DNA of 64,000 bases. Origin: a virus. The stretch is taken from IMG/VR virus record IMGVR_UViG_3300037722_000745, positions 229,116 to 293,115 of that record; one strand, 5' to 3'. This document shows, piece by piece, positions 3,215 through 17,357 of the stretch (positions are counted from its first letter, which is position 1; every line of letters begins with the position of its first letter). Below the pieces are notes generated by a model. That model was not told the DNA's origin. It was given only the letters and a program-made list of their open reading frames with translations, and made no database searches. Both the position numbers and the translations under genes were made by a program.

Positions 3215-3598
3215 CTACCAGACGACGCCCCCACCTCGTTTTTCAAGCCGGCCCGCAGAGACCCGTACAAAGCGATCTAGGCCCGGTTCGATGAGATGGA
3301 CCCGCTCCGCAGCACGGAGAACCTCCCCGTCCGCTTGTCCAGCCTGAACCGAGGACGGTACGAGGCGATCTCCAACGAGATAGCCAACCTGCCTGTGCCA
3401 CAGGCTTTCTAACTCAGGTTCGGCCAGAGCCTTGACCTGAGCCTTACGTCCCTCCAACGCAAACTCAATCCAGCCATGCTCTACAGGAAGGCTCCCCTCG
3501 ATGACCCAGCGACGGGAGCCCGACCGGAGGGACCGGCCCCCAACCCAAGGTGCGACAATCGTCTCACCTTCTTTCTGAAGTAGGGTCCTCCAAGTCAT
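3215..3598 (-). pseudogene. Truncated paralog of the N-terminal half of 1798-2748
   Basis: APWVGGRSLRSG...VGYLVGDRLV...ERVHLIEPGLDRFVRVSAGR, then abrupt stop; ~60 nt (3250-3309) nearly identical to 2409-2468. Confidence 0.85.
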
Positions 3599-4527
3599 GA
3601 CTCTCCAACCCTAATCTTCCAGGACTCCAAACTCTCACCACGTCTTCTACGTCGGGCCAACTTCAGTCTTGCTTCGGGGGTACTAAGAGCCTTCGTTATA
3701 GCCTCGCTATGTTTGGCTTTAACTTCGGGGATACTGAGTGTCTGGGCTATAGCCCTACCGCGTTTCTCTTTCTCCCCAGGTTGAGCCCATTGGCCTTTCA
3801 TCCTACGACTCATAGCGGCCAGCCGTTCCAAAGTCATTGATGCTTGAACACCAATCTTATGGCGCTTCTTCACCTCAGGTAGGGCCAGTCTCTTAGCTGC
3901 CTCAATGCTTAGCTTCTTTCGCACCTCACTTGTATACCCGGCTTTTTGAAGCTTGATGCGTTGCCCCCTTTCCTCGGCCGAGTACCCAGCCCAAGATGCC
4001 TTAAGACCCGCACTACGTTTCTCCTTCTCACCGGGTCTGGAGTAAACCTCCAACATCTTAGCTCTACGACGAGCTTTAGAATCAGGTTGACTGCAGGCCA
4101 AGATCAACGCTTCACGGTGCCTAGCCTTTACGTCGGGCCGTGCCATAGCTAACTTTACCCCAGCACTGTTCTTAGCTCGAACCTCCGGCCTATTCTGAGC
4201 CTCTTTCCCAGACACCGACATTTTCCGTCGAGTCTCTGCCGAAGGCTTCCCGTTTGACCCACCTGTCTTCAGATTGTACCCAAGCGGAGACAGAGAGGTG
4301 GCCACCCATTTAATTTCCAGCGCATCCAATTCCTCTTTCGAGGATGCCTCACCAACGACCTCAAACACGAATTTGTCTCGGCCATACTTGGCGATAGCCG
4401 CCCGCAAAGCGTGGCAATGGCTGTCAGTCCTGAAATGATGTGACCACCTCTCCGAAGGGTTGATGGTTTGACCGTGGTAACATTTTCCGCTGACCAAACA
4501 ACGAATCCTGTAAACCAAACCGTACAC
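3595..4527 (-). CDS. GIY-YIG homing endonuclease (Seg-like) with NUMOD3-type repeats
   Basis: GLVY-x-YHGQT, R, E, GYN motifs; repeated SAETRRKMS/PEVKAK segments. Confidence 0.88.
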   Translation of the reverse strand: MYGLVYRIRCLVSGKCYHGQTINPSERWSHHFRTDSHCHALRAAIAKYGRDKFVFEVVGEASSKEELDALEIKWVATSLSPLGYNLKTGGSNGKPSAETRRKMSVSGKEAQNRPEVRAKNSAGVKLAMARPDVKARHREALILACSQPDSKARRRAKMLEVYSRPGEKEKRSAGLKASWAGYSAEERGQRIKLQKAGYTSEVRKKLSIEAAKRLALPEVKKRHKIGVQASMTLERLAAMSRRMKGQWAQPGEKEKRGRAIAQTLSIPEVKAKHSEAITKALSTPEARLKLARRRRRGESLESWKIRVGES

Positions 4528-12913: not shown

Positions 12914-12936
12914 AAGGGGAGCCTGTTGAGGGAATC

Positions 12937-12972
12937 GTCTCGCCGCAGCGAGCAATGAGTGCATGACTACAC
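12937..12972 (-). repeat. Solitary CRISPR-like repeat, family B (Cas12j-like)
   Basis: GTGTAGTCATGCACTCATTGCTCGCTGCGGCGAGAC (36 nt), followed by a tRNA 3' end. Confidence 0.85.
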
Positions 12973-13020
12973 CAAGCCAACAAGCGCTGATGGAAGCAGG
13001 CCAGTTGCGTGACTACGTAG

Positions 13021-13097
13021 TGGACCTGTCGGGAGTTGAACCCCGATCCCGGTTACCACCGTACCAAGGTGGTGCTCTGCCACTGAGCTATACGGGC
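13021..13097 (-). pseudogene. Chimeric tRNA: Thr(GGT) 5' half fused to the tRNA-Ala 3' end
   Basis: Acceptor strands do not pair; 3' part matches the tRNA-Ala 3' end at 14408-14430. Confidence 0.75.
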
Positions 13098-13433
13098 GTT
13101 GAACCGAAAGACAACCCTCTCTCTAGCTTGCCTCCTAGACTCCATATCGCGTAAGGCATGCCTCAGAATTTGAAGGTTGACGATCGCATCGTAAAGCTCC
13201 CGCTCCTTCGCTCCGCTGTCTATAAGCCTCTCTAGTTTATCGATCTCTCGTCGGATCCGATTCCGATCTTGCAAACGCTTAGGGAGCCGCAAGCCTGTGG
13301 TCCGATCCTGACGCTCAACCTTCCTAAGTTGCTGCTCGATATAGTCCACCTCTTTTGGGGTCAAGGATCGAGGCAGTAGTCCAGGCCGAGGGAAAGTCAC
13401 CTCAAAAGGACGGTCCGGTTTGGGTACCGGCAT
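13053..13433 (-). CDS. Hypothetical coiled-coil protein
   Basis: ORF coupled to the upstream gene; tail reads into the tRNA remnant. Confidence 0.6.
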   Translation of the reverse strand: MPVPKPDRPFEVTFPRPGLLPRSLTPKEVDYIEQQLRKVERQDRTTGLRLPKRLQDRNRIRREIDKLERLIDSGAKERELYDAIVNLQILRHALRDMESRRQARERVVFRFNARIAQWQSTTLVRW

Positions 13434-13939
13434 CAGATCTGACCTAACACCTTTCGAACCAACCGCATGAACGTCAGTCCAGCGAGTTCAGGATCTGTGC
13501 TGAATGCGGTCTCCGTGATAGACCGTTTGAAGTCAGCTCCGCTCAAGGGTTTGTGAGGCACATACCCGAACGAAAGTAACGGAAGACCGCCCCGGATTGA
13601 CAACATCAACGTGAAGGTCTCCAAAGCGGGTCGAGTGGAGAAGTAGTAGTACAGCTTCATCCGCTGCTGGGTAGCATTCATGTAGAAACGATCGCCATGG
13701 AACTTCCGCCTGAATGCTGAAAGGGCCTTGGGTAAGAGGATCTCGATAGACAACTTGGCCGCATCAAAGACCTCTTGCGCAGACGTTGGCACCCCGACTT
13801 CAGGAGGACCCCAACGAGCTTGCCGGGCCATCCTCTCGGACCACGGAACGACCCATGACGGGATTTCCGGCTGCCAGTCCCCAAGGGCTACCTGGTAACC
13901 CCACCTGGCCGCCACGCGCTTTGCAAGAGTACCCATCAC
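13433..13939 (-). CDS. Hypothetical protein
   Basis: 168-aa ORF, GAGG RBS; N-terminal LAKRVAARW motif. Confidence 0.7.
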   Translation of the reverse strand: MMGTLAKRVAARWGYQVALGDWQPEIPSWVVPWSERMARQARWGPPEVGVPTSAQEVFDAAKLSIEILLPKALSAFRRKFHGDRFYMNATQQRMKLYYYFSTRPALETFTLMLSIRGGLPLLSFGYVPHKPLSGADFKRSITETAFSTDPELAGLTFMRLVRKVLGQI

Positions 13940-13968
13940 CTCGTGCAGTGTGATGGGTAGATTAGTGA

Positions 13969-14043
13969 GGCTACCTGACGGGACTCGAACCCGCTCTCAC
14001 CGGACCCACAATCCGGCCGCCATCCTATCGGCGCTCAGGCAGC
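13969..14043 (-). tRNA. tRNA-His(GTG)
   Basis: G-1:C73, loop TT-GTG-GG. Confidence 0.88.
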
Positions 14044-14143
14044 AGAAGTATCACAACGGTCCCGGGCCGGGTGCGACGAGCTAGCCACACGCGCCGAGTA
14101 GCTAGCTCGGACGCGCTGCGTTCTGTGCCCCGTTGTGACACGG

Positions 14144-14226
14144 TGCGAACGAGAGGAGTCGAACCTCCACGACCTCGCGATCAGCTGGGTTTGAGCCAGC
14201 CGCGTCTGCCATTCCGCCACGTTCGC
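14144..14226 (-). tRNA. tRNA-Leu(CAA)
   Basis: Long variable arm, loop CT-CAA-AC. Confidence 0.92.
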
Positions 14227-14240
14227 GTGAGCACTACTCA

Positions 14241-14276
14241 GTCTCGCTCTTAGGGGAGGCGAGCTTCCTTTGATCC
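14241..14276 (-). repeat. Solitary CRISPR-like repeat, family A
   Basis: GGATCAAAGGAAGCTCGCCTCCCCTAAGAGCGAGAC. Confidence 0.85.
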
Positions 14277-14323
14277 CATACAGGAAATCCTTCTTGCAAG
14301 CTACGGTGCTGGAGACAGGAGTC

Positions 14324-14359
14324 GTCTCGCCGCAGCGAGCAATGAGTGTATGACTACAC
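14324..14359 (-). repeat. Solitary CRISPR-like repeat, family B (Cas12j-like)
   Basis: GTGTAGTCATACACTCATTGCTCGCTGCGGCGAGAC, followed by a tRNA 3' end. Confidence 0.85.
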
Positions 14360-14404
14360 CAAGCCAACAAGCGCTGATGGAAGCAGGCCAGTTGCGTGAC
14401 TACG

Positions 14405-14476
14405 TGGTGGACCTGTCGGGAGTTGAACCCGCAAACTCTCCTTGCAAGGGAGAGCCCTGACCCGTCAGACAAGCCC
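14405..14476 (-). tRNA. tRNA-Ala(TGC)
   Basis: G3:U70, loop TT-TGC-like (TTGCAAG), ACCA; short D arm. Confidence 0.78.
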
Positions 14477-14480
14477 ATTT

Positions 14481-14561
14481 AGGTCCGAGGCGAATTGTCG
14501 ACTCCGCGTCTCCAGCTTCCGTACGCAATAGCTGGCGCTCTAACACTGAGCTACTCGAACC
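14481..14561 (-). tRNA. Atypical tRNA-like gene with expanded anticodon loop
   Basis: Acceptor, D and T arms pair; anticodon stem CCAGCT/AGCTGG closes a 12-nt loop; T loop GTCGACAA. Confidence 0.6.
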
Positions 14562-14563
14562 AG

Positions 14564-14635
14564 CGGAGCCGAGGGGACTCGAACCCCCCTCACTGGCGTG
14601 ACAAGCCAGCCGCCTCACCCGATGCGTACGGCTCC
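14564..14635 (-). tRNA. tRNA-Asp(GTC)
   Basis: Cloverleaf, loop TT-GTC-AC, G73. Confidence 0.9.
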
Positions 14636-14639
14636 GTAA

Positions 14640-14894
14640 GTCCCACTCTTGATGGAGGTGGGCTTCCGTTGTGACCGTGCGGATTTCGGAGATGACGCTG
14701 AAGCCGTCATCGGTCCCACTCTTGATGGAGGTGGGCTTCCGTTGTGACTTCGCTCCGATCGCAATCCCGCAGGATCGCGACCAGCCGTCCCACTCTTGAT
14801 GGAGGTGGGCTTCCGTTGCTGCCAGGCAGGACGGCTCGAAGTGGCTAAGATGATGTTGGTCCCACTCTTGATGGAGGTGGGCTTCCGTTGCTGC
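14640..14894 (-). CRISPR. Orphan CRISPR array: 4 x 36-nt repeats, 3 spacers (37, 38, 36 nt)
   Basis: Repeats at 14640, 14713, 14787, 14859; minus strand G(T/C)(C/A)(A/G)CAACGGAAGCCCACCTCCATCAAGAGTGGGAC; unique spacers; leader on the high-coordinate side. Confidence 0.96.
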
Positions 14895-15075
14895 AGTGCG
14901 CTCAAAAAGACCTAAAATTTCCAAAGAGCTGAGAGCCGGATTGCGAGAGCCTCTGCAAACTCCCGCTAAATCCGACTCCATGGAGAGTACTACACTGTTC
15001 ACAGAGAGCGCAAGACCCTAAATTCATTGTCTTGCGAGCGATCCCCGGGCTCCAGGCGTCACCGAGGCTCTCGCG
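14895..15075 (-). promoter_or_regulatory. CRISPR leader
   Basis: GCGAGAGCCTC...GGGGATCGCTCGCAA...GGCTCTCGCAA plus an AT-rich proximal part; a similar sequence recurs at 56901-57014. Confidence 0.7.
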
Positions 15076-15241
15076 TTCCGATGCCGTCCAACAAGGAAAC
15101 TCCACGTCCCGGCGAAGAGTTGAGAGCATGGGCAGTACCGTGCCCACAAGGGCCAGTCCTCTCGCTCAACCCCGCGAAGTCGAGCTGTTTCAGGAATGTG
15201 ACACGGGTTTTGGTTGATGCTGGCCAAACATGACTACCCAG

Positions 15242-15318
15242 TGGAGCCGGCGGGGATCGAACCCGCCGCAAAGCCGCATTGCAAGTGCAGCTCGCCCCCG
15301 CCAACCGATACGGCTGAG
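15242..15318 (-). pseudogene. Degenerate tRNA-Ala(TGC)
   Basis: Anticodon arm, T arm and 3' acceptor intact; 5' acceptor/D arm disrupted. Confidence 0.7.
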
Positions 15319-15325
15319 GGGTATC

Positions 15326-15718
15326 TCACCGAAGAGATGACGGCTCATAAAGTGTCAATAGCTCCTTTGCCCAATCTACGAGGTCCGACACCCTCGCGCC
15401 GGTAGGTTGCGGACTTCGCCACAACTCCAGGTTGCACGGTCTGTTGTCGTCCCTAACCCCGTTCTTGTGGTGTACCGTCTCACCCGGCAAGAGATAGCGG
15501 CCAAGGACTTCCTCCATCACAAGGATGTGCTCAAACACGTACGGACCGCTTGTAGCCCTAGGGTGCAGCGGAACTCGCCGCATCACGTATCGAATCGGAT
15601 CGCCGCACCCAAGGCAGGGTACCTTTGGGAGAGATCGCCGCCGACACATCGGGCATTTCCGATGTCTGCTACTTGGTGTGAAAAGTCTGCAACACGAGCT
15701 ACAAGTTTTGACAGCCAT
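15326..15718 (-). CDS. HNH endonuclease (HNH_3-like), possibly internally deleted
   Basis: YVFEHILVMEEVLGR...VHHKNGVRDDNRPCNLEL; N-terminal Cys pairs. Confidence 0.85.
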   Translation of the reverse strand: MAVKTCSSCCRLFTPSSRHRKCPMCRRRSLPKVPCLGCGDPIRYVMRRVPLHPRATSGPYVFEHILVMEEVLGRYLLPGETVHHKNGVRDDNRPCNLELWRSPQPTGARVSDLVDWAKELLTLYEPSSLR

Positions 15719-15781
15719 TAGTCACCGAGACAGTCTCGGCGTGCAGGGTACACCACGTGCAGGTTGCCATCTTCGTACCCT

Positions 15782-16180
15782 TGGACTCGGTGGGAATCGA
15801 ACCCACGTCCTAGAAAGCTATCGAACAGCGTCTACGTGCGTAGCGTGACTTCGGACTCGGTTAAGGTCGTGCCCATGCCTCACGCCGGCTTCCACCTGGG
15901 GCGTGACTGGTTTTCCAGTCTTGCCTCCACCACCGATCTAGCGACCTAAGGTCTTGCGACCCGTTTCCCACAGCCAATCGGACTCTGTGGTGCAGCCCTG
16001 CGTTTACTTACGCCGCTCGAAATCGAAGCAGGGAATCTACCCCGAGCGACGGCTCAGGCAGCCTGAGCAAAGCCGTTATAGTTGGCTTTTCTTGTTTGGT
16101 CGGCTTGATAACCCGGCCTGCTGACCAACCGGGGCACGCTGCTGCTCGAATTACCTCCCAGTCGAAACCTTTACGAGCCC
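15782..16180 (-). ncRNA. ssrA: tmRNA, tag ANYNGFAQAA*
   Basis: GGGCTCG/CGAGTCC-A acceptor with G3:U, GGTTTCGAC 5' motif, GGACGTGGGTTCGATTCCCAC 3' motif, resume frame GCC AAC TAT AAC GGC TTT GCT CAG GCT GCC TGA. Confidence 0.95.
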
Positions 16181-16209
16181 TAAATCTGTCATCGCATACA
16201 CCAAAAGTC

Positions 16210-16284
16210 TGGAGCCCCTTCCCGGAATCGAACCGAGTTATCTGGTTTACAAGACCAGCGCATCACCAACTATGCTTAAGGGGC
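16210..16284 (-). tRNA. tRNA-Thr(TGT)
   Basis: Cloverleaf, CCA. Confidence 0.92.
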
Positions 16285-16312
16285 TTAGCTACGCCAGCAG
16301 AAAACGCTAGAG

Positions 16313-16488
16313 TTCTCACACCGGTCCGCACTCTAGCAGCGGCCCTACATACCCCGGGCCGCCAGCCTAGCTTGGCAGCCCACCAGGGGCCTGGTGTCAG
16401 GCGGGACGCCGTCCGAATACCTCAGAGCTTTTGACCGGGCTAGAGAGCCCAAGATGAGGGTCATCGTTCAGCATCGACCGGTGGAGAA
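16313..16488 (-). ncRNA. Long rod-shaped ncRNA, 6S RNA-like
   Basis: ~175 nt with paired ends (CACCGGTC/GACCGGTG, CCCT/AGGG, CTTGGG/CCCGGG, CTAGC/GCTAG) and internal GGCGTCCCGCCTG resembling 6S GGCACCCACCTG. Confidence 0.45.
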
Positions 16489-16510
16489 AATGGTAGCGAC
16501 GGAGGGAGTC

Positions 16511-16546
16511 GTCTCGCCTCAGCGAGCAATCAAGTTGGCGGCCACC
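16511..16546 (-). repeat. Solitary CRISPR-like repeat, family B (Cas12j-like)
   Basis: GGTGGCCGCCAACTTGATTGCTCGCTGAGGCGAGAC followed by GACTCCCTCCGTCGCTACCA. Confidence 0.85.
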
Positions 16547-16601
16547 GCCAAAAGCCCCGTAAAGTTTAGCCCGCGTTCGAGATGAGCGACCTGGTTAGCG
16601 A

Positions 16602-16762
16602 TTGCTTGTTTTCCGAACAAGTGCGTTTGCCAGTTACGCCACAAAGGCCGGACGGCCTTCGACGGGACTCGAACCCGCATATGCATGTAAGATCGTTCTG
16701 GCGGAACGCGAGCTGGTGGGGAGTCTTGGAGTCGAACCAAGTTTGCTTGTAAGCGCCGCTGG
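16602..16762 (-). pseudogene. Cluster of tRNA fragments (a 5' half, a 3' half, and a Val(TAC)-like 3' part at 16715-16762)
   Basis: T arms GGTTCGAGTCC and GGTTCGACTCC with acceptor ends but no matching 5' halves; GCCTTTGTGGCGTAACTGGCAAACGC 5' half with no 3' half. Confidence 0.6.
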
Positions 16763-16953
16763 CGGCTCCCTTGCGGGAGCGAGAGGCAGTGCTGGAGTAT
16801 CGCTTTCGATTTACCGTCGAAATAGAGGCCAACCCTCCTACTCCCCAGATGCCGGTGCTCACCACACCACCGTCGTCAACGCAAGGGACCGGCGCCCCTG
16901 TGAAGCTCTCTGGCGATGATGCAGTACCCTCTCTAATACACCAAAGAAGGCGG

Positions 16954-17101: not shown

Positions 17102-17121
17102 TTGTTTGGTTGCGGGAGCCG

Positions 17122-17157
17122 GTCTCGCTCTTTCAGGTGGCGAGCTACCACGGTTTT
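17122..17157 (-). repeat. Solitary CRISPR-like repeat, family A
   Basis: AAAACCGTGGTAGCTCGCCACCTGAAAGAGCGAGAC followed by a duplicate of the tRNA-fMet 3' end. Confidence 0.8.
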
Positions 17158-17166
17158 TCAAACCAG

Positions 17167-17238
17167 TTGCGGGAGCCGGAATCGAACCGACGAGGCTTGG
17201 GTTATGAGCCCGAGTTGAGGGCCAACACTCTTCCCGCG
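17167..17238 (-). tRNA. Initiator tRNA-fMet(CAT)
   Basis: C1xA72 mismatch, GGG/CCC anticodon stem. Confidence 0.85.
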
Positions 17239-17316: not shown

Positions 17317-17357
17317 TGGTGGGTCCTCTCGGGATCGAACCGAGTTCTCCGATTTTT
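17317..17357 (-). pseudogene. tRNA 3' half (probably Phe-type) directly after a repeat
   Basis: AAAAATCGGAGAACTCGGTTCGATCCCGAGAGGACCCACCA. Confidence 0.75.

Follow-up and report, generated by a model that had tools for sequence, protein, structure and literature searches.

How does the end of a CRISPR repeat come to be joined to the 3' ends of transfer RNA (tRNA) genes, exactly where the T-loop TTC should stand? The question is raised by a stretch of 64,000 nucleotides (nt), here called the window, which covers C1:229116-293115 of a 323,174-base phage record (IMGVR_UViG_3300037722_000745, hereafter G000; estimated completeness 68%). G000 carries 43 tRNA or transfer-messenger RNA genes, all on the same strand, and encodes a 718-amino-acid Cas12j (CasPhi) effector at C1:218308-220464, about 9 kb ahead of the window. 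In the tRNA cluster of the window, three solitary copies of the end of the Cas12j array repeat are each followed directly by a tRNA segment that begins at position 57.

Solitary Cas12j handles and the position-57 junctions

The Cas12j of G000 matches CasPhi-2 (E 2e-159), as well as Cas12j-SF05 and CasPhi-3, and the RuvC triad (D380, E588, D681) and the residues that read the protospacer adjacent motif (PAM), Q126 and Q201, are all present. Directly behind its gene lies an array of seven 36-nt repeats, and the solitary copies, here called family B handles, correspond to the last 20 nt of this repeat (with one base different in copy 3). The first-pass annotation of the window had taken them for Cas12j repeats; the match to the array beside cas12j bears this out, but for the 3' 20 of 36 nt alone. 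Outside the array, G000 contains one two-repeat mini-array and eight solitary family B copies, six of them in the tRNA region, and none of the eight is full length, all retaining only the 3' 19-20 nt. The solitary handles keep C-1, A-2, G-17 and U-18, which are described as structural contacts in Cas12j3 (PMC8298400).

Three of these eight handles (12937, 14324 and 16511; minus strand) directly adjoin tRNA position 57, as had been proposed from the first inspection. With a weight matrix of tRNA positions 57-73, built from 391 tRNAs of related phages, the segments behind them score 10.8, 12.2 and 13.5 bits, respectively, which places them in the top 1.4e-4, 4.5e-5 and 1.9e-5 of the 646,314 sequence windows of the genome. 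The match exists at offset 0 only: shifts of 1-3 nt all score below -4, and so do the other four family B solos scored and nine spacers of the array and mini-array. At a threshold set post hoc as the lowest of the three fusion scores, which 57% of the training tRNAs reach, the 23.6-kb tRNA cluster contains 28 high scorers; 25 are preceded by TTC, and the three that are not are the three fusions. On these grounds a chance likeness to tRNA ends was rejected. An assembly artefact was rejected as well, since contigs of six other runs (X4, X5, X6, X7, X13, X20) span the three junctions, and that of a Thr chimera described below, unchanged. No second family B repeat lies behind any of the three fusions, which thus lack the repeat-spacer-repeat structure of a mini-array. 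Folding of the handle-plus-guide RNAs is non-discriminating, with a hairpin probability of 1.0, 0.38 and 0.27 for the three fusions vs 0.02-0.99 for seven CRISPR RNAs (crRNAs) of the array.

The features of the fused region, in window coordinates, are:

12917..12936, minus strand: tRNA positions 57-76, Thr(GGT)-type; matrix score 10.8; gene order and acceptor end as in the related-phage loci L230, L237 and L242
4 nt beyond the 12937 fragment: start of tRNA-Ser(GGA)
12937..12956, minus strand: Cas12j handle copy 1, identical to the array repeat end
12967..12973, minus strand: GGTGTAG promoter-like motif, 10 nt ahead of handle 1
12937..13037, minus strand: 101-nt insert between Thr positions 56 and 57, made up of an Ala 3' end, a linker, the promoter motif and the handle
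13038..13097, minus strand: Thr(GGT) 5' half joined to the Ala 3' end, a chimera without an acceptor stem
14304..14323, minus strand: tRNA positions 57-76, Leu(CAG)-type, 5' part absent; matrix score 12.2; L230 and L237 have Leu(CAG) there
14324..14343, minus strand: Cas12j handle copy 2, from which copy 1 probably derives
14354..14360, minus strand: GGTGTAG promoter-like motif, 10 nt ahead of handle 2
14405..14476, minus strand: tRNA-Ala(TGC) with G3-U70; the cassette starts with its 3' end
16491..16510, minus strand: tRNA-type positions 57-76 ending in CCA, identical to bacterial tRNA-Met ends, at the terminal T-arm/acceptor site of a non-coding RNA (ncRNA)
16511..16530, minus strand: Cas12j handle copy 3, one loop base different, a variant shared with one mini-array repeat
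16531..16549, minus strand: 19-nt hairpin ahead of handle 3, similar to a hairpin before the solo at C1:87517
16550..16700, minus strand: tRNA-like ncRNA of several domains, conserved in L232, L236 (twice) and L217; no Rfam family

Elsewhere in the record, an RtcB RNA ligase gene lies shortly behind the Cas12j array (L001:5973-7376), and G000 also carries type I-C-like arrays, which are known from CasPhi phages (PMC7162821). No match to Cas1 or RVT_1 was found in the 68% of the genome that the record is estimated to represent, and no protospacer was confirmed for the array spacers. The exact Cas12j repeat has no match in IMG/VR; a relaxed repeat gave at least 120 metagenome loci, nearly all due to chance, among which L076, L107 and L114 resemble related phages. 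A scan with a single Cas12j protein gave no match.

Origin of the tRNA fragments and of the unit ahead of them

The order of tRNA genes in L230 and L237 is Val(TAC), Leu(CAG), Leu(GAG), His (L230 only), Leu(CAA), Leu(TAA), Thr(GGT), Ile, Ser(GGA), Gly, Gly, Cys, Arg, and that in G000 is Val-like, Ala, the 14324 fragment, Leu(CAA), His, Thr(GGT), the 12937 fragment, Ser(GGA), Gly, Cys, Arg. L230 and L237 have Leu(CAG) and Thr(GGT) at the corresponding places, which suggests that the 14324 and 12937 fragments are in-situ remnants, namely the 3' ends of these two genes of the phage itself. ARAGORN calls no Leu(CAG) in G000, and the acceptor end of the L237 Leu(CAG) agrees with the 14324 fragment at six of seven bases and at the discriminator. 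A 7/7 match to the acceptor strand is also present 173 nt upstream of 14324, but within the Val anticodon arm, and was discounted as fortuitous. The first-pass annotation, whose view of the fragments as remnants of intact genes is supported by this gene order, had also held that the matching 5' halves were missing. This is true of 14324, whose 5' part is absent, but not of Thr(GGT): its 5' half is still there, and the TTC that closes it, at 13038, lies 101 nt upstream of the 12937 fragment.

The 113-nt block 12931-13043 is 97% identical to 14318-14430, and 6 nt of T-arm microhomology flank the insert on each side; the 12937 fusion is therefore probably a secondary copy of the 14324 cassette, in line with the earlier suspicion that the two represent one duplication. 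The third fragment, 16511, occupies the position at which the conserved ncRNA has a closing T-arm/acceptor domain in L232 and L236, and the first 7 nt of the hairpin at 16531..16549 could pair with its acceptor strand (three G-U pairs). Over 18-22 nt, the same fragment is also found behind TTC in 13 bacterial genomes, with a tRNA-Met call at 12 of these 13 sites. Its origin is thus ambiguous, the sequence suggesting the end of either a Met-like gene or an ncRNA domain.

The surroundings contain further tRNA-like sequences. At 14482-14560 there is a Val(TAC)-like gene, called by Rfam and not by ARAGORN, whose anticodon loop is enlarged, and at 16717-16845 a tRNA-like acceptor and T-arm enclose about 100 nt of other sequence. 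Further sites of the tRNA-like ncRNA are L001:18380-18800, L232:14050-14670 and L236:14020-14800; at one orthologous minihelix of this RNA a family B handle (G000) and an element of a second repeat family, family A (L236), both end exactly at position +1, and L232 has neither.

On the upstream side, none of the eight solos keeps the 5' 16 nt of the array repeat or a neighboring spacer. A segment of 25 nt containing GGTGTAG is common to C1:11450, 12937 and 14324, where it stands ahead of three different 3' flanks. An open-frame ATG lies 8-10 nt downstream of GGTGTA[G/T] at 24 of 109 sites, compared with 3/87, 5/113, 1/63 and 0/83 for control words in the same test, and GGTGTAG fits a leaderless promoter motif of the clade. 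The handles at 12937 and 14324 begin 10 nt behind it and are thus lone repeats behind a predicted promoter, which the one at 16511 is not. Among relatives, the motif precedes the handle by 9-11 nt in 4 of 10 solos, of which one is in L107 and the other three, whose fillers differ, are in G014; with the G000 cassette counted once, this amounts to 5 of 16 independent solos, at a chance of 0.001-0.003 each. In G004, a handle-only array and a solo stand behind sigma70-like boxes, as read from the sequence. The recurring unit is thus a predicted promoter plus a handle, which would yield a crRNA without processing.

In L003:1758-2750 (G000:C1:10757-11750) the cassette adjoins the stop codon of an RNase HII gene that is encoded on the opposite strand; behind the cassette comes part of a second RNase HII allele. 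Solitary Cas12j-type handles also occur in leaders and tRNA clusters of related phages (L327 of G014, L328 of G013, L287 of G034, L076, L107, L114, L188), some of them without a Cas12j match, and solos lie within the tRNA clusters of G001, G034 and L076.

PAM direction and competing explanations

Cas12j-SF05 is reported to prefer TBN and to need 17 nt of spacer, and Cas12j3 to read TTN and to need a hybrid of more than 12 nt (PMC10663539, PMC8298400). The T-loop TTC fits these published PAMs of relatives, in keeping with the TBN PAM given for Cas12j at first inspection. The 42 tRNA genes of G000 considered here have on average 76.6 positions, with 13.9 TBN, 3.3 TTN and 1.8 TTC sites. A second independent junction would thus fall on the same position in about 1/77 of cases at random, about 1/14 if TBN-directed and about 1/3 if TTN-directed; two independent junctions at one position are likelier under TTN direction, because the genes hold 3.3 TTN vs 76.6 positions.

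Similar geometry elsewhere, which speaks for the interpretation of the first-pass annotation, is seen in L107 and in family A at 2468 and 17122. In L107, TTG and a 13/14-nt copy of the guide start are found 49 nt upstream of the promoter-led handle. The handle-only array of G004 (L346:6200-6600 = G004:C1:82200-82600) precedes a cas12j gene whose catalytic residues look intact, and four of its five spacers match a neighboring gene, behind TCG, TCA, TCA and TTC (4/4 TBN). Family A comprises a four-repeat array at 14640-14895 and solos at 2468, 9459, 11761, 14241, 17122, 17358, 17826 and 57308, and its stems covary. In G011, which is without Cas12j, ten copies form a dispersed element of about 105 nt that starts with TTGAC and has no connection to any of the six TnpB-like gene ends listed. 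Neither a Cas12j repeat nor a TnpB right end is supported for family A, and we use it as an analogy only. At 2468, a family A hairpin (2468-2499) stands in place of about 41 nt of a conserved core gene and keeps the reading frame, with a net change of -9 nt; a truncated paralogue (3215-3598) keeps the native sequence, with TGC at the junction, and the next 61 nt are common at 98%. At 17122, the repeat follows TTC and a 13-nt duplication of the fMet 3' end, the first copy being the one behind TTC (17109-17178). Another family A solo, in the region 17320-17357, adjoins a Phe-like 3' half that starts at anticodon position 35. The family A pattern has 57 loci in IMG/VR, and 23 distinct contexts among the matches listed are not handle-like. 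The few native flanks available are mixed: the in-genome paralogue of 2468 and L107 have TBN, but the remote homologues of 2468 do not.

We tentatively favor, as a serious possibility somewhat short of probable, that Cas12j cut behind the T-loop TTC and that repair copied a handle-only guide unit onto the PAM side. The phage's own nuclease, or that of a sister phage, would cut a tRNA-type gene behind this TTC, its predicted PAM, and the break would be repaired by copying a promoter-plus-handle unit, not a full array, onto the PAM side, leaving fragments that would be remnants of the phage's own genes. The 14324 and 16511 fusions would each have arisen independently, and T-arm-to-T-arm recombination would have copied the 14324 cassette to 12937. 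The product would be immune through loss of the PAM and, if transcribed, would give a crRNA of 20+20 nt against the intact TTC-bearing allele in sister phages. Readings of the junction as a scar and as a guide are compatible, the product being both. By a doubtful extension, promoter-plus-handle units may be minimal Cas12j-driven homing elements that settle at former PAM junctions, use the flanking gene end as a guide without Cas1-Cas2 and, in co-infection, have Cas12j cut and convert the intact alleles of sister phages. They would then form, and this is equally speculative, an RNA-guided counterpart of T4 SegB, with the invariant TTC of tRNA genes serving as a PAM that cannot mutate.

No plausible perfect target of such guides was found in the databases searched (IMG/VR and cultured phages for all three, GTDB for two). 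The best match in relatives is that of the 16511 segment to Leu(CAA) of a related phage, 18/20 behind TTC (L251/L252), and cultured phages gave only matches with E=3, none of them significant. The phage's own tRNA genes agree with the three guides at 14-16 of 20 positions, with seeds of 7-11 nt, values below the published limits of more than 12 nt of hybrid and 17 nt of spacer.

A number of observations weigh against a PAM-directed cut and repair. The PAM of the G000 enzyme is itself predicted, and no exact match to any of the three fragments was found in IMG/VR, as far as near genomes were included in it. No close empty allele of any family B site was present among 8 of the 20 listed runs, examined as assembled contigs, which drop rare variants. 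Five of the eight family B solos are not joined to position 57, there are at most two independent events with 12937 as a probable copy, and no handle joined to position 57 was found beside 523 tRNA calls at 37 loci of relatives, so that the position-57 fusion is so far confined to the G000 lineage. The promoter motif stands at 10 nt for only three of the eight solos and is absent at 16511. The tRNA order is shared by only 2 of the 20 related loci listed (L230 and L237) and differs in the other 18; the Thr 5' half pairs with the 12937 fragment at only five of seven acceptor positions, an imperfect restoration; and the identity of the 16511 fragment with cellular tRNA-Met ends would equally fit an imported spacer. 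Finally, the clearest cases of a replaced flank (2468 and 17122) belong to family A, which has no assigned effector, and none of the ten best-matching homologous sites of 2468 in relatives is preceded by TBN.

A rather unlikely alternative is that the handles act on RNA, either as decoys for a competitor's Cas12j, like RNA anti-CRISPRs (Racrs), or as sites at which Cas12j binds or cuts the phage's own transcripts, the junctions being by-products of T-arm microhomology in a fast-shuffling cluster. Most solos indeed lie in leaders or gaps outside tRNAs, handles occur in G013, a complete record without a Cas12j match, and microhomology alone accounts for the 12937 copy, in a cluster that also contains GIY-YIG and HNH genes (3595-4527, 15326-15718); moreover, solitary repeat units (SRUs) are reported to lie often just behind promoters, and type V-A Racrs to work (PMC10651486). 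However, handle and T-loop share a single base (C56) at 14324 and 16511, for which microhomology is not predictive, the three fusions are the sole TTC-less 3' ends in the cluster, and a phage that made decoys for its own nuclease would defeat itself, unless their role were regulatory.

It is improbable, in our estimate, that the guides were imported, i.e., that tRNA genes of the host or of competitors supplied them as spacers, which were then set behind a promoter, with the invariant TTC as a PAM that the target cannot mutate. Position 57 through CCA is exactly 20 nt, the 16511 segment is found behind TTC in the 13 bacterial genomes and nearly so in the related phage, and viral mini-arrays are reported to target mostly related viruses (PMC11656645). 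Against this, two fragments are located at the tRNA predicted by gene order, one of them 4 nt from the next tRNA and with its 5' half upstream, and there is no downstream repeat; the 13 matching genomes are mostly labeled animal-gut, whereas the runs of the phage are from soil and sediment, and in the GTDB search, which covered two of the three fragments, the 14324 segment had 0 matches.

The donor named by the first-pass annotation, a full attacking array that recombined through a spacer and left a neutral scar, is quite improbable and not supported: the array's 5' half or a neighboring spacer is present in 0/8 solos, the promoter cassette precedes three different flanks (C1:11450, 12937, 14324), and the solos of G014 combine promoter motifs with different fillers. 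In its favor, spacer-phage recombination has been reported (cited in 10.1101/2020.10.09.333658), the 19 nt before the 16511 handle are similar to the sequence ahead of C1:87517 and could represent a foreign repeat's 5' half, and the replacement at 2468 is in frame.

Reverse transcription of a crRNA as the copying route is not supported by the record, which at an estimated 68% completeness shows no RVT_1 or Cas1 match. In the attR (right attachment site) remnant of a tRNA-integrating element the displaced 3' fragment retains the whole T-loop core, and the position-57 fusions are without TTC.

Relation to known systems

A literature search outside subscription journals and supplements found no paper on Cas12j handles joined at PAM junctions of tRNA genes. 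Partial precedents exist in known systems, each of which covers one part of the case. As in published accounts of type V-J (Cas12j/CasPhi) systems, a 36-nt repeat, an array beside a 718-amino-acid effector, the kept handle contacts, the lack of cas1 and the type I-C-like arrays are all seen in G000 (PMC7162821, PMC10663539, PMC8298400), but the copies described here are handle-only, off-array and joined to in-situ tRNA ends. SRUs, Racrs and viral mini-arrays likewise include lone repeats in phage genomes, often just behind a promoter (PMC10651486, PMC11656645), and type V-A Racrs and promoter-led lone repeats are also described in 10.1101/2023.03.03.530964. In contrast to these, the handle here is single and mimics the phage's own effector rather than a host system, and its 3' flank starts exactly behind the PAM-like TTC of a conserved gene.

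TnpB guides are similar in that the scaffold lies at the right end of the element, the guide comes from the 3' flank and the vacant site is the would-be target (10.1101/2023.03.14.532601). They differ in using omega-RNA and TnpB where a CRISPR handle and Cas12j are found here, with no known transposase and with the motif lost in two of three cases. T4 SegB is reported to act, within a cluster of phage tRNA genes, on the part from T-loop to CCA, and to bias inheritance in co-infection (PMC2330249), but SegB reads DNA by protein, whereas recognition here would be RNA-guided. Delocalized crRNAs of CRISPR-associated transposons are off-array, repeat-like RNAs with a tRNA-site guide (PMC11656645); unlike in those systems, no Tn7-like transposase was seen here, no search aimed at it having been made, and the nuclease looks catalytically intact.

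Such junctions would record the way in which lone repeats originate, and in which new guides are made by DNA repair instead of adaptation. Were the guides active, a CRISPR nuclease would bias inheritance as its TnpB ancestors do, on tRNA genes that are unable to lose the PAM.

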